This document shows positions 6,001-15,000 of a stretch of DNA of 64,000 nucleotides, in pieces. The DNA lies in NCBI RefSeq assembly GCF_013167455.1, contig NZ_CP038328.1. One strand, given 5' to 3'. Position numbers: made by a program. This DNA is from Escherichia coli O157:H7 (lineage in GTDB: Bacteria; Pseudomonadota; Gammaproteobacteria; Enterobacterales; Enterobacteriaceae). The first letter of the stretch is position 1. The number at the start of each line of letters is the position of its first letter.

Positions 6001-9000
6001 TGAATACCTCTTATCCTTAAGTAAATATTAACCAGGTAACTGTGAATAATTTAGATGTTGGGCGTTATGAAAGTAATAAAACTCCCCATATAATGATAGC
6101 AACTAAAATCGTAATCAACACTGCGGCTGAACCCATATCTTTTGCTCTGCCTGATAATTCGTGATGTTCTGAACCAATTCTGTCAACAACTGCTTCAATT
6201 GCACTGTTAATTATTTCAACAATAATTACCATCATTGCCGAACCAATGAGTAATACTCGAGTAACAGAGTCAACATCCAGCCAAAAGGATATTATCAGTG
6301 CTGACAGAACCAGAATGCACTCCTGACGAAAGGCTGCTTCATAGCGCCATGCCGCACATAAGCCTTTCCATGAATAACCCGCTGCTTTAATAATTCTGGT
6401 AACACCAGTGGTCGTATTAGCCATAAATACCTCTTATTTAATTATATGTCTGAATATGCATTATAAAATATCAGTTAACATTAACAGGATTTTGTAATAA
6501 GCCACATTTATTCTTTCGGGAATTAAAAAACATAACGAAATTTTGCCTCATTCTGCATTTCATTGAAATAGTATGTTTCTCATCGAAAGCAAGTTTGTCA
6601 ATATAAATTTGTAACAGAAATGACTTTCCGGGGATAAACAAAACTGTTCATGGCAATGGCTTTCTCTGTCGCCAACATGGATACATTGTTCCGGATAAAG
6701 CACTGATGTCATTGACTGACGCAGACTATCAGGCCATCTGATGCTTTCTTTTCCTTCACCGGTATTGATGATATGCCTTATGAAGGGGGACTTATTCCTG
6801 TAACCCAATCACAGGCACTGTGATTACTGGTTTATGATTGATGCTGATTTGAGCAGATATGCACAGCAGTTGTGGATTCAGGGGATATTTTCTGCCAGAT
6901 ATTCATACCAGATTGATGACCTCTTTGCTCAGATGCTCTTCGTTCTGAGCCAGCCAGGATTTTGTGGCCACATACATTGTTCGCCGATGGGGAATCGAGA
7001 CAGGCGATTGGCTGTGATGCGATTTTGCCGCTAACTGAGGATGAGTCCGCCCCTCCCGGGGAATTCCTGTAAGTTAAGCCGTACCTGTTGATTAGCACTA
7101 AACTGGGTAATGAATTTATCTGCCAGTATGAATGATGCCGGGGACGGTTTTGAACTCCTGATGTCGGGTAATATGCAGGATTTTAATATTTGTTGTCGTC
7201 GGGATAATCATTATCCTGAACATAAACTGATACCTTTATCAGAGTTATTTGACGTTAATTATGGACTGAATCTTGAGCTGAATAAACTGGAGAAAGATTC
7301 TTCAGGAATTAATTTTGTTTCAAGAACGTCCAAAAATAATGGCGTCTCCGCCAGGGTTAAATTAAAAGATGGTATTAGTCCATGCCAGCAGCTGTGTTAA
7401 CTGTAGCAGCAGGAGGTTCTGTTATGGAATCGTTTGTACAGGATTCACCATTTTATAGTGGAAGAGATCTTTATTGGTTACGTCCTAAAGTTGAACTGAC
7501 TCTGGAAGAGAAATTGTACTACTGCTCTTGTATAAGAAGAAACAGACACAAATACAGCTACGGGCGTCAGGCAAACCGAACGCTGAAGAATTTACTGGTA
7601 CCGTCATTAGATTCTGTTCCGGCATGGGTATATGGTGTGACAGGGAAAATAATATCTGAATTGTCTGAACGTTGAGACTAAGAGGGCCGGAGGCCAGGTG
7701 AATGGCCACCGGGATATTTATATCAGAGTATATTGGCGATTGATTTTGCCAGCTGGTCTTCCAGATGAGGTTTAGCTTCTTCAAACTTCAGATTAACCTG
7801 GTTGGCACTGGATACAACCCGGGTCTGGTATTTATGCTGGTTGCCGGTTTCTGTGCTTGTCTGAATTTTGGAGCCTGATGTTCCCTGACGCAAAGCTGCA
7901 ACATTATCCGTTCTGACGCTGGTTCTGGTTCGCTCGGCAATCTGAACATCTGTAATCATTGTGTAATTTATATCTTCCACCATTGCATCCGCGGCCATGC
8001 CAATCAGACCGGTAGCCAGTCCAACACCGAGAGTGGTACCTGCCGACCCGGTATTGTACGCTGTGATTCCACCTCCAAGAGCAGCTCCGACTGCTGCACC
8101 TTCATAACCGCGACTCAGCCATCCCTGAGATTCACGCAGATCCATTTTGTCTGCTTTGAGAACGTTAGCCTGGATCCAGTAGTAAGCTTTATCCGGGGAA
8201 GTCATGATCTGATAACCTCTGGCTTTGACTGCATCGGCAATTTTTCCCTGTAGTCCACTCATGTCTTTATCCGACGTGTTTTTGATCTGCAGGAAAACGG
8301 TGCGTTCGCTCGCAGGTTCAAGCCAGATGGTTGAGGTGTACTGACAATAGCGGACACTACCATTTGTTCTTTTTTTAAGCAGCCATCTGATGATATTTTT
8401 CCCTGAAGGCTGCCGGGGAGATATTCCCCAGACGAGAGTGACGACGCTGACGATTGTAGAAAATCTCAATGTATTCCCGTATTACTGAGATGGCCTCATC
8501 CCGGCTCTTAAAACGATAGTGGCTCAGGCTCTCATTTTTCAGCGTTCCCCAGAAGCTTTCCATCGGAGCGTTGTCGTAACAGTTACCTTTACGCGACATT
8601 GATGTTTTCAGACCAAACTGCTCCTGTATGACCCGGTAATCGTATGCGCAGTACTGTGAACCTCGATCAGAGTGGTGGATTAGCCCGGCAGGTGGGCGCT
8701 GGCTCCTGAGCGCCATAAACAGGGCTTTACCTGTCAGCTCTTTTGTCATGCGCTCTCCCATGGCGTAGCCGACAATTTCGCACGTATAAACATCTTTGAT
8801 GCCAGCGAGGTACAACCATCCCTCCTGTGTGGCAACATACGTCAGGTCCGCCACCCAGACCTGATTTGGTGCTGTAGGAGCGAACGTCTGGTTCAGCAGA
8901 TTTGGCGCAACTGGCAGATTGTGGTTCGAGTTCGTAGTCGCCCTGAACTTGCGTTTCTGCTTACAGCGTAGCCTTAGCTCCTTACGAAGACGTGCCAGTC

Positions 9001-12000: not shown

Positions 12001-15000
12001 TTCCGTGGCGCATAGCACTGCCAGCTGAATAACACATCCCCGTCAATACGGCCCTCGCTGTACGCTTACGCGTAATCGGGGCAGACGCTATTACAAAGCT
12101 GTTGATGCTAATAACCGAGCCAACAGAATGGCGAAAAGGCCAAAACCGTGCTTACTGGATCAAAATTTACCATTGCGAAAGCTTGTTCTGGAAAAGCTGG
12201 AGATGAAATGGTCTCCAGAGCAAATATCAGGATGGTTAAGGCGAACAAAACCACGTCAAAAAACGCTGCGAATATCACCTGAGACAATTTATAAAACGCT
12301 GTACTTTCGTAGCCTGATTACCACTATAAAAAGGCTGCTATTGAGTATGTTGCTCAGATGCTCATATCAAATATCGGTAATCTTGAGGAATACACATTTG
12401 TTCCCGTACCACCATCCAAATGCCGTACAGATGCCGCTTACGATGACCGTATGACAGAAATTCTGCGAATTGCGCAAACCTACGAACCATGGCTGGATTT
12501 CTGGGAACTGGTTGTGCAAAACGTATCAACAATAGCCTCTCATACCGCAACAAACCGGCCCTTACCAGAAGCGATTATGGCAAACTACCAACTGGATGAA
12601 CAATTACTGGAAGGGTGCAGGCCCTAGATTGTTATTTTTGATGACGTTCTCACTGCCGGTAGTCATTTTAAAGCGATGAAAAGCCTGATACTACAACATA
12701 TTCCTGAAGCCTGTATACTGGGACTCTTTGTTGCCCGAACAACCCGGGGAGCTCAAATTATTTAAAAAGGGTAAAGTACTCCTTAAAATTAAATCACTGA
12801 TTCATCGCCGTCAGCTATAATCCTGTACCCCATCGCTTTATAACCCCGCTGACGTTTATCCCACATTCTGAGCAGCACAGGATACGCGGTATCCACAAAA
12901 TCAATGATCCTGACATCGCTTTTACCGGTATGCTCTCTGTGAAGACGCCCTGCATACTGCTGTAATGTCCCTTTCCATGACACAGGCATGGCAAGAATCA
13001 GCGTATCCAGCGGAGGGTGGTCAAATCCCTCACCAATAAGTCTGCCTGTTGACAACAAAATTCGAGGAGAATCGGGAGGAAGAGCATTCAGCCCGGATAT
13101 CAGCATCGCACGCTTTTTTTTCGATAGTCGACCATGGAGAATAAAGGGAGACAATTTCAGTGAATTCATCACTGATGCTATCTCATCCAGATGATCTGTA
13201 CGTTCAGTCAGTACCAGAACTTTTCGCCCCTGCCCGAAAGCTTTCATGGCTTCTTCAGCTATCGCCACCGTTCTGTCATGATCCAGAGCAATTTCTCTGA
13301 AAATATCCTGGATTCTCGCATCCGATGGTAAATGACCAGATGTAAAACGGGAACGGATCAGTACCTCCAGATTATGTGGGCTTTCCTTCGGGCGGACCGC
13401 TGTATGGCGAATGGCACCACAGTACATAAAAATAATGGGATGCAGACCATCCCGTCGGATTGGTGTTGCCGTCAGGCCAAGCAGATATCTGGCATTCGTT
13501 TCCTTCAGAATCGCAGAAAATGAAACCGCGCCAATATGATGGCACTCATCCACAATGATTTGCCCATAATTCCTGACCAGAGGTTCAACTTCTCCTTGTC
13601 TGGATATGGACTGCACCACCGCAATATCAATATTGCCACAGGGTTTATGTTTACCTCCCCCGATAATACCAATACTGTCACCGGCCTGCAGAAACACCGC
13701 GAGACGCTCCTGCCACTGCTTCAGCAATTCAGTCCGGTGTACCAGTATCAGTGTATTCACTTTCCGCTTGGCAATCACTGCCGCTGCGGTAACTGTCTTA
13801 CCAAAAGCCGTTGGCGCACAAAGCACACCAGTGTCATAACGGAGTAATGCCGAAACGGCCTCTTCCTGCTCCGCTCTGAGGTTTCCCATAAAAACGGCAT
13901 TACATTCCGTCCCGGCAAATCGTTTATCGATTAATTCTGCAGCAATATTGTTGTCCCTAAGGAAAGATAATACGCTGTCCAGACATCCCCGGGGCAACGC
14001 AATGTGTTGCGGGTAATTCTCCGCACAACCTATAACACGGGGCTTATTCCAGACTGACATACGCATTGCCTGAGCCTTATAAAACTCAGGGTTCGGAAAT
14101 GCTGCCAGCCGAATAAGTCGGTTAATCAGCACCTGAGGTAATTGCGCTTTTTCGAAATAGATCTGGTTTGCCAGCGTGATTTTCAGCGGTTCTGCAATAG
14201 AAATATTCAGTCTGTTTCCTGATGATTTTTTCTCTTCCCACGGCGTACCCAGGTCTTCTTCGTTGATAAAATTCACATCCAGAGGATGGATACTCCCTGT
14301 AGCCCGTAATATCGTCGGTTCAATATCCTGCACATTCATCGGGGTCACCGATACAAGAAAAGCCCACTGATCAGGATAAGGCTGGAGATTCATATCAACA
14401 AAAACGCTTCCCCCCAATTCACGCGGTCTTTTTTGCAGAGGTAACGCTATGAGATTACCAAATCCCCCTTTTGGCATAGTATCCTGATTAGGAAATAATC
14501 GGTCATAAGACCCCAATCGCAGCTGTCGGGTCCGACTACACGTATAGCTAATAATAGCAGTCCCCAGACGGCGAGCTTCGCGGGCCGAAACTCGTGAGGC
14601 AAAAAATATCCAGACATGCGCCCCCTGACGTGAACGGGATATTTCCAGCGCAGCAGGTACACCCAGCTCATCACAGGATCGCATGAATGCGGATGCATCC
14701 TTCTGCCATTCAGCTTCATCAAAATCAACTGCCAGAAAATAACAGGAATCATCTTCCAGCAACGGATACATCCCGACAGTATGGGTACCGGCCAGATGGT
14801 GGTAGATGACGAGATCGGATACAGGAATCAACTGACGGTGAGCGCAGTCCCCACATTTTATCCGGGGTTTACCGCATATTCTCGCCTGCCATTCGTTAGC
14901 GCAGGCAGGAGAGTACCCTGATTTGCCGCTGGTTTTACTTTCCCATCTAAGTGCCCATACATCATCACGCCCACGAAACAACCGACGAAATAATGCAACC

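Follow-up and report, generated by a model that had tools for sequence, protein, structure and literature searches.

Organization of the locus

The window, by which we mean the whole 64,000-nucleotide stretch of E. coli O157:H7 DNA under analysis, is 99.98% identical to the reverse strand of SpLE1 in strain Sakai, and the locus described here is the insertion-sequence-scarred part of this tellurite-urease island (SpLE1 / OI-43/48). From left to right it carries hsdS-like fragments, a traT remnant, an IS3-family remnant, an IS30 copy interrupted by an IS66-family element, a comF-like gene and iee. The three families had been assigned correctly in the initial annotation, and alignment identified their members as IS600, IS30 and ISEc8, respectively. 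At least 80% of the 6.5-kb region is present in 426 of 5,426 complete genomes, and tRNA and Rfam scans of the window returned nothing relevant to the nest. The nested arrangement is genuine, not a product of chance, and ISEc8 is its only structurally intact component; traT, IS600 and IS30, like the comF-like gene, survive as pseudogenes or remnants.

ISEc8 and its target site

ISEc8 occupies positions 9628..12069 on the plus strand (2442 bp; repeat_region ‘ISEc8 Family: IS66’ in the Sakai record). Three ORFs, tnpA (9720-10100), tnpB (10097-10444) and tnpC (10494-12032), encode products of 126/133, 115 and 512 aa, all inside the 2442 bp, in line with the ORF content (tnpA, tnpB and a tnpC with a DDE domain) and ~2.4–2.7 kb length of the IS66 family. 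At the same locus of the near-identical O157 strain ECP19-598, the annotated ISEc8 proteins are WP_001171554.1, WP_000612591.1 and WP_000998048.1. The element ends in perfect 13-bp terminal repeats, GTAAGCGTACAGC, and is flanked by an 8-bp target duplication, GCGTAATC, with the left copy at 9620..9627 (IS30 nt 350-357) and the right copy at 12070..12077, as given by the sequence and the IS30 alignment. This octamer is single-copy both in K-12 IS30 and in the empty site of ETEC strains. Independent plasmid copies of ISEc8 have the same length and ends and their own 8-bp duplications, CGTAATTG and GGTTTTCT. In structure, the element is intact.

The IS30 piece to the left of ISEc8 (9271..9627, plus strand) comprises nt 1-357, with the left inverted repeat (IRL) and the 5′ portion of the transposase reading frame (start 9333); the piece to its right (12070..12314, plus strand) comprises nt 350-594. 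Since both pieces are 100% identical to K-12 IS30 (IS30A), removal of ISEc8 together with one repeat restores IS30 exactly. The initial description of an intact IS66 element with identical termini, inserted into IS30 with an 8-bp duplication, was reproduced by alignment to independent reference copies. A natural empty site with uninterrupted IS30 nt 1-594 was found in four porcine ETEC chromosomes, in which both inversion joints described below are present. Because these islands have all the other joints but no ISEc8, ISEc8 appears to have arrived last.

Two further observations concern this site: the IS30(1-356)|ISEc8 joint also occurs in another IS30 copy, on plasmid pLR-21-1_2, and the O157 strain 7.1_Anguil has no ISEc8 here. 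In view of both, precise excision of ISEc8 in the ETEC lineage is unlikely but not impossible.

IS30 and IS600 remnants

Including the IRL, IS30 matches K-12 IS30A over nt 1-594 of 1221, an incomplete copy that stops at window positions 12312-12314. The CC at 12313-12314 is common to the IS30 end and the comF-like gene, and the previously proposed end at about 12312 lies within this ambiguity. The right inverted repeat of IS30 (nt 1175-1221) was found only in a far-side block of Sakai-like genomes, described below. On the left, alignment confirmed the IS600|IS30 joint at 9270/9271, where TG leaves 2 bp of ambiguity.

The IS3-family element, IS600, which the Sakai record names ISSd1, is represented by nt 326-1264 at 8332..9270 on the minus strand, a piece that includes the right inverted repeat and in which orfB is intact (272 aa, 8375-9193); the window lacks the left 325 nt of the element, and orfA with the frameshift region is cut by IS30. 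The piece is 99.5% identical to IS600 of S. sonnei pSS_046 over nt 324-1264, and Sakai labels it both as a repeat_region ‘ISSd1 Family: IS3 partial’ and as ECs_1311 ‘IS600 transposase’. Its right inverted repeat, TGAGGTGTACTG..., starts at 8332, and this end and the orfA/orfB organization are those of the IS3 family, in which TG...CA ends bear inverted repeats and orfA/orfB are linked by a programmed frameshift. The IS600 alignment places the traT|IS600 joint at 8331/8332; independent IS600::IS30 copies in 152 genomes begin exactly at the IS600 end matching 8332, homology to plasmid traT ends at 8331, and the 3-bp ACC duplication described below fits this joint. Of the five junctions proposed initially, four were recovered with reference IS copies, and this one had been misplaced at 8336/8337.

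Both insertions left target duplications. The last three bases of the traT remnant (8329-8331, ACC on the gene strand) are the copy of the IS600 duplication that lies inside the window, and comparison with intact traT finds ACC at both halves of the split gene. For IS30, the IS600 dinucleotide 326-327 is duplicated in E. coli 55989, and the two parts of the split IS600 terminate at nt 326 and nt 325/327. In ST131, IS30 lies at this dinucleotide too, in the reverse orientation, and in K-12 and two plasmids it occupies the homologous IS911 site. A preference for hot-spot targets and the generation of 2-bp duplications are known features of IS30 (PMC9333248).

The traT remnant and its origin

The traT remnant (7723..8331, minus strand; NCBIfam and Pfam TraT models) consists of codons 42-243 and the stop codon. 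It covers positions 42-243 of the 243 in the NCBIfam model and scores 430 bits against a cut-off of 445. The first 41 codons are gone, including the signal peptide, the LSGC motif and the lipobox Cys21; at the break, the intact allele (P0050) reads ...QMSET|IWLEP. The gene is a pseudogene, even though the PGAP annotation has a chimeric ORF of 233 aa here, with its start inside IS600. Two plus-strand ORFs adjoining traT (7110-7400 and 7382-7675) are hsdS-like fragments of a type I restriction specificity gene, annotated in relatives as a frameshifted ‘restriction endonuclease subunit S’. In strains bearing an integrative conjugative element (ICE), intact hsdS and hsdM adjoin an intact traT.

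The presence of traT had been taken to imply plasmid-derived DNA, which the comparison did not bear out. An intact allele (243 aa, 99% identical) resides in chromosomal ure/ter islands, and a 98% identical copy lies inside an ICE. When an F-plasmid origin was tested, the best F-like plasmid match reached 81.6% DNA identity, confined to the ORF. There are no tra neighbours, and the closest intact copies are the chromosomal island and ICE genes. A plasmid origin is therefore not supported.

An inverted far half beyond ureG

The missing parts of the nest were largely recovered elsewhere on the island. In Sakai, pB39_V and ETEC1746, and in 517 genomes, a block beyond ureG, inverted and ~10 kb away, carries IS30 nt 1175-1221, IS600 nt 1-325 and the first 42 codons of traT, with ykgM and hok alongside, in the order sat′|IS30 1175-1221|IS600 325->1|traT 5′ (inverted)|ykgM|hok. 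The block escaped the initial annotation because it lies outside the window, ~1.7–2.2 kb beyond its left edge; from near-identical genomes we infer that the present strain carries it too. Accordingly, IS30 is not simply truncated, as had been supposed: its end is an inversion breakpoint, and only nt 595-1174 are missing, a segment absent everywhere examined. Similarly, the statement that IS30 cuts the IS3-family element, which in turn replaces the 5′ end of traT, is right as to the order of insertion and wrong as to loss, given that the halves survive inverted beyond ureG.

The sequence across the far joint is GGGCAGTGA|AAGAGAT; in the same autotransporter remnant, L015-type islands have an IS629-like end 0–4 bp from this point. 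An intact traT in the un-inverted gene order is found in L015-L020 and L031; the intact traT of L015 reads GTGAA[ACC]ATCTGG, and both pB39_V halves each keep the ACC. No un-inverted arrangement of the traT 3′ part, IS600 and complete IS30 was found among the 5,426 complete genomes, the best matches starting at the IS600 end; the steps up to the inversion are therefore ordered by logic and not by observed intermediates.

At the other joint, the comF-like phosphoribosyltransferase pseudogene (12313..12765, plus strand) retains only codons 59-208 and forms the right side of the inversion joint, which falls at codon 59 with the CC microhomology. The intact homologue (P0121) has 208 aa and is 95% identical; DNA identity, 96.7%, begins at 12313, an in-frame TAG at 12625-12627 stands where the homologue has Trp, and the TIGR00201 comF match is weak. 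Next to it lies iee (12789..15173, minus strand; Sakai ECs_1305), the IS-excision enhancer (IEE) gene, 475 bp from the IS30 joint; its product combines an AEP primase-polymerase with a helicase and is of the ‘TOTE’ type (Pfam AEP-TOTE, ResIII and Helicase_C).

A TGA at 12315-12317 is no leftover of an IS629 end, as the intact comF-like gene natively reads CCTGATTA there. Inversion by the IS30 transposase was rejected, since neither new joint has an IS30 end. L015-type islands say nothing about the ancestral comF/iee breakpoint, as IS629 in them is followed by the aerobactin genes iutA-iucDCBA.

Proposed history and alternative explanations

We propose that the locus records stacked transpositions followed by inversion within SpLE1, a history that we consider very probable as a whole. 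IS600 would have entered an island- or ICE-borne traT after codon 42, generating the 3-bp ACC duplication, and IS30 would then have entered IS600 at nt 326/327, a hot spot for IS30 adjacent to the frameshift motif of orfA/orfB, generating the 2-bp duplication. An inversion of ~10 kb would next have split the traT::IS600::IS30 nest, with one breakpoint inside IS30, where nt 595-1174 were lost, and the other between the sat-like autotransporter remnant found downstream of ureG and the comF-like gene adjoining iee. Its product in the window would be IS30(1-594), IS600(326-1264) and traT(42-243), fused to comF-like codon 59; the reciprocal product beyond ureG would be IS30(1175-1221), IS600(1-325) and traT(1-42), with ykgM and hok. 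ISEc8 would have come last, into IS30 nt 350-357, with its 8-bp duplication. The relative order traT <- IS600 <- IS30 <- ISEc8 agrees with the one first proposed and is carried by the ACC, 2-bp and 8-bp duplications together with the ISEc8-free ETEC islands. The sequences show that the three insertions and the inversion took place; how the inversion came about we infer.

Loss alone would account for the window taken by itself: deletions could have removed the IS30 3′ half, the IS600 5′ third and the traT 5′ end, with nothing else surviving. No second copy of any nest piece, the missing parts of IS30, IS600 and traT included, exists elsewhere in the 64-kb window, and IS30 nt 595-1174 are indeed missing everywhere examined. 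The far-side block, with matching target duplications in Sakai, pB39_V, ETEC1746 and the 517 genomes, makes this account very improbable, and for Sakai-like genomes it refutes it. Misassembly of repeats is a general hazard of IS-rich regions, with nothing specific to suggest it here, and its probability is negligible, since hundreds of genomes, finished independently and spanning several serotypes and pathotypes, have these joints identical to the base. A nest not built in place deserves somewhat more attention: a preformed IS600::IS30 composite could have moved into traT, with transposase acting in trans, or IS30 could have been imported by recombination. The identical joint of IS600 nt 326 and the IS30 IRL, in the same orientation, does occur at an unrelated chromosomal locus in the 152 genomes, 55989 and O104:H4 among them. 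However, IS30 hit the same dinucleotide independently in ST131, the homologous IS911 site has also been used, such recurrence is expected from the hot-spot specificity of IS30, and the SpLE1 and 55989 copies of IS600 differ at 5 of 941 positions. We hold assembly in situ to be the better account and a preformed composite or import by recombination to be improbable.

The mechanism of inversion is where the alternatives come closest. The mechanism that we favour has IS629 once present at the second breakpoint and lost by microhomology-mediated IEE-type excision or repair. A single illegitimate event (template switching or end joining) guided by microhomology, with loss at the breakpoint and no part for IS629, is a serious competitor, although we put it below an even chance. 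Microhomology at the new joints is limited to 2–3 bp, CC at 12313-12314 and GA/GAA at the far one, and neither joint has an IS end. Behind the IS629 idea stands one positional coincidence, and the far-joint TGA may be native autotransporter sequence, as native SPATE homologues read GTGAC past the breakpoint. Against this, an IS629-like start within 0–4 bp of the same point in L015-type islands is unlikely to be accidental, and rearrangements of this island driven by IS629 have been documented in O157 (Bielaszewska et al. 2011, PMC3064760). A more specific and rather doubtful proposal is that the traT-ure inversion joints are natural IS629/IEE-type footprints, combining IS loss with flank rearrangement, in an event that would also have cost IEE its own partner genes, a dprA-like gene being removed and the comF-like gene truncated. 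If true, the EHEC IS-excision enhancer would work as an orphan of the original three-gene ‘TOTE’ module. The truncated comF-like gene beside iee may interest those working on IEE and TOTE systems.

For biology at large, a dead scar in a well-studied island carries little weight. Its value lies in annotation: the traT/IS600 joint is corrected to 8331/8332, the PGAP 233-aa ‘TraT’ is exposed as a chimeric pseudogene, and the ‘partial’ IS600 and IS30 pieces flanking the ure cluster prove to be halves of one inversion-split nest. The ISEc8-free ETEC islands also offer a usable marker for relative timing in the spread of SpLE1-like islands.

Comparison with known systems

The same locus in Sakai SpLE1 (NC_002695.2 1381788-1386379, ECs_1305-ECs_1312), equal to OI-43/48 of EDL933, shows no difference of substance from the window. 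Its record already gives the order IS30 partial (245 bp), ISEc8 (2442 bp), IS30 partial (358 bp), ‘ISSd1 Family: IS3 partial’ (941 bp) and traT, annotates IEE and includes a 325-bp ISSd1 partial beyond ureG, but has neither the 47-bp IS30 end there nor an inversion feature. Taken piece by piece, the nest thus appears ordinary.

F-like plasmid traT, encoding the surface exclusion and serum resistance lipoprotein, belongs to the same protein family as island traT, and one IncF TraT is 91% identical in protein to the intact island allele. The neighbours of the island gene are ykgM and hsdS, those of the IncF plasmid gene traS/traD; unlike the plasmid gene, the window copy lacks its first 41 codons.

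The IS911::IS30A arrangement of the K-12 CP4-6 prophage likewise has IS30 within an element of the IS3 family; the insertion is at the homologous site, adjacent to the A6G frameshift motif, and has a 2-bp duplication, but there both halves of the host element are collinear and IS30 contains no further IS. The IS600::IS30 composites of 55989/O104:H4 (hchA region) and ST131 (next to sat) use the same dinucleotide 326/327 as the window, in the same orientation in 55989 and the opposite one in ST131; at both of these unrelated loci, IS30 is complete, the two halves of IS600 lie adjacent and traT plays no part. Finally, IS629-mediated rearrangement and IS excision enhanced by IEE in O157 (PMC3064760; IEE overview preprint 10.1101/2023.06.07.543989) involve the same island, IS-bounded deletions and 2–4 bp of microhomology at excision scars. 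Those two studies report deletions and excisions, whereas the locus described here points to an inversion in which the role of IEE is putative.

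The Nested IS Elements and Their Joints

A megablast search of 5,426 complete E. coli genomes recovered at least 80% of positions 7000–13500 in 426 of them, the top matches being nearly all O157:H7. Window positions 1–17331 correspond to Sakai NC_002695.2 1394101–1376771 on the reverse strand, with 4 mismatches, and the window lies within the Sakai element annotated as "SpLE1". The Sakai record lists a 245-bp partial IS30, the 2442-bp ISEc8 (IS66 family), a 358-bp partial IS30, a 941-bp partial ISSd1 (IS3 family; ECs_1311, "IS600 transposase") and traT (ECs_1312); the gene for the IS-excision enhancer IEE (ECs_1305) follows at a distance of two annotated genes. 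Since these pieces of the nest are listed there, the nested IS feature is an ordinary object that is already known and annotated.

For delimiting the joints, the alignments used K-12 IS30A, the IS600 copy on S. sonnei pSS_046 and ISEc8 from unrelated plasmids, all of them references taken from independent contexts. IS30 nt 1–357 (9271–9627) and nt 350–594 (12070–12314) are both 100% identical to K-12 IS30A, and IS600 nt 326–1264 (8332–9270) is 99.5% identical to the pSS_046 copy. ISEc8 occupies 9628–12069 (2442 bp) and its ends are perfect over 13 bp; the independent plasmid copies are equal in length, each with its own 8-bp duplication. IS30 nt 350–357, GCGTAATC, is present twice as a duplication around ISEc8, and IS30 is regained exactly on removal of the IS66-family element, as the initial annotation had claimed. 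The IS junctions it gave were likewise reproduced by the reference alignments, apart from 8337, which is off by 5 bp: the IS600 terminus, TGAGGTGTACTG..., starts at 8332. Three independent lines place the traT/IS600 joint at 8331/8332: IS600::IS30 copies at another locus in 152 genomes begin to match at precisely 8332, plasmid traT homology ends at 8331, and the joint is consistent with a 3-bp target duplication. The IS30 end formerly placed at about 12312 is acceptable, since the truncation lies at nt 594 and the CC at 12313–12314 is common to IS30 and the adjacent comF-like gene.

To the right of 12314, an open frame extends as far as the joint and corresponds to codons 59–208 of a 208-aa ComF-family protein (P0121, 95% identical). 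Truncated at codon 59, this comF-like remnant (12313–12765, + strand) contains an in-frame TGG-to-TAG change at 12625–12627. The iee gene (ECs_1305; 12789–15173, − strand), encoding an AEP-TOTE primase with a helicase, adjoins the IS nest. In other E. coli islands, the comF-like gene follows a dprA-like gene and the pair is convergent with iee; SpLE1 is devoid of the dprA-like gene and of 58 codons of the comF-like gene. Further along, at 17252/17253 in a YfjI/DUF3987 gene, ETEC and O26 relatives have 48 additional bases, relative to which the window and O157 show an in-frame 48-bp deletion.

The Missing Halves and the Inversion

No copy of the missing IS30, IS600 and traT parts was found within the 64-kb window. 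The traT remnant (7723–8331), used as a protein query, retrieved a full-length 243-aa allele (P0050, 99% identical), whose contigs have the gene order hok-ykgM-traT-hsdS-dgkA-eptA-like-ureDABCEFG. We aligned this intact-traT arrangement against the O157-type island of pB39_V and against Sakai. Both of the latter carry a sat-like autotransporter remnant beyond ureG, followed in order by IS30 nt 1175–1221, 2 bp, IS600 nt 325 to 1, inverted traT nt 126 to 1, and then ykgM and hok. The earlier reading of these elements as truncated thus needs correcting, the reciprocal IS30, IS600 and traT parts being found inverted beyond ureG in Sakai-like genomes. This far block is present in 517 genomes and, judging from near-identical genomes, is expected 1.7–2.2 kb past the left edge of the window.

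Intact traT reads GTGAA-ACC-ATCTGG, and the ACC, kept at each of the two traT halves, is a bona fide 3-bp IS600 target duplication. Of the two IS600 pieces, one stops at nt 326 and the other at nt 325/327, corresponding to the 2-bp IS30 duplication that is intact in E. coli 55989. Because the halves keep matching ACC and 2-bp IS30 duplications, the sequence shows a formerly complete traT::IS600::IS30 nest that was split by a ~10-kb inversion. IS30 nt 595–1174 is the only part of the nest unaccounted for.

Order of Events

The timing of ISEc8 relative to the inversion could not come from nesting alone. Four porcine ETEC chromosomes carry the traT/IS600, IS600/IS30 and IS30(594)/comF-like joints, 100% identical over 1251 bp, without ISEc8; the far block is also present in ETEC1746, the sole one of the four examined for it. 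Because ETEC carries the other joints without ISEc8, this element was the last arrival, later than the inversion, and the nesting order first proposed agrees with these joints.

Further insertions were seen in related copies. In O26:H11 islands (strain FWSEC0001, L011 7142–8405), an extra intact IS600 lies inside the right IS30 fragment at IS30 nt 487–490, adding a fifth level to the nest. Two other cases qualify the late arrival of ISEc8. On pLR-21-1_2 (L005 2212–5009), a different IS30 copy, located within an IS911-like element, has ISEc8 after IS30 nt 356, one base from the window's site and with a rearranged right flank; this joint reflects either an ISEc8 target preference or spread by recombination. 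In O157:H7 strain 7.1_Anguil, IS30 1–594 is uninterrupted at the site equivalent to window 9620–12077, an inverted ISEc8 stands at the equivalent of window 7127, ~2.5 kb from the empty IS30 site, and the comF-like–iee flank is 1.1% divergent. Relocation, the quality of the assembly or the presence of a different copy of the island could account for this pattern.

Origin of traT and Neighbouring Features

The traT remnant covers TraT model positions 42–243 and, because the signal peptide and lipobox Cys are absent, is non-functional. A 248-aa ORF (7723–8469, − strand) begins in the IS600 end and continues into the remnant; PGAP annotates a 233-aa version of it as "complement resistance protein TraT" (WP_042354693.1) with no pseudogene flag. 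The initial annotation had taken traT to imply capture of plasmid DNA, which is not borne out: the closest plasmid traT has 81.6% DNA identity over the ORF only, and intact copies of the window's allele were found in chromosomal ure/ter islands. Among such plasmid-borne proteins, one IncF TraT shows 91% protein identity, its gene lying between traS and traD on that plasmid. A 98% identical traT copy lies inside an integrative conjugative element (ICE) with intact hsdS/hsdM and iha, and a conjugative-element ancestry of traT is plausible.

Two short ORFs at 7110–7675 (+ strand) are fragments of an hsdS-like type I restriction specificity gene. In the ICE-bearing STEC strains L022 and L029, intact traT adjoins intact hsdS and hsdM, and many O157 strains have IS629 inserted in the hsdS-like ORFs, with one or two extra copies in some (L001). 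A 539-aa phosphoethanolamine transferase is encoded at 4353–5972 (+ strand; eptA, ECs_1317, in Sakai), with a diacylglycerol kinase gene adjacent (6065–6424, − strand); the best NCBIfam models for the transferase are MCR-9/MCR-3-related, far under the cut-offs (779 vs 1240 bits). An Rfam "5' ureB sRNA" match at 1631–1909 (+ strand, 86.5 bits) overlaps the urease structural genes and is therefore more likely a sign of conserved coding sequence than of an sRNA.

A Possible Former IS629 at the Far Joint and the IS30 Target Site

The far joint reads GGGCAGTGA up to the junction and AAGAGAT after it. In the intact-traT islands, an IS629-like element (TGAACCGCCCC...) starts 0–4 bp from this point, and in one of them (L031) aerobactin genes then follow it. 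After the same point, native SPATE autotransporter homologues read GTGAC, so the TGA at the far joint may be native or may come from the end of an IS629. The positional coincidence provides moderate evidence that an IS629 formerly stood there. The mechanism of the inversion we infer; IS629-driven recombination is documented in the SpLE1 island (PMC3064760), and excision enhanced by IEE leaves microhomology scars of 2–4 bp (preprint 10.1101/2023.06.07.543989).

The same IS600::IS30 joint is common at another locus, a further qualification of the order of events, and IS600 nt 326/327 (window 9270/9271) has been struck by IS30 in both orientations, as seen in 55989 versus ST131. In K-12 and two plasmids, IS30 likewise occupies the homologous IS911 site, next to the A6G/A7G frameshift motif. 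This IS3-family site thus appears to be a hot spot for IS30, the joint recurring because of the hot-spot specificity of IS30, which is known to target such sites with 2-bp duplications (PMC9333248).
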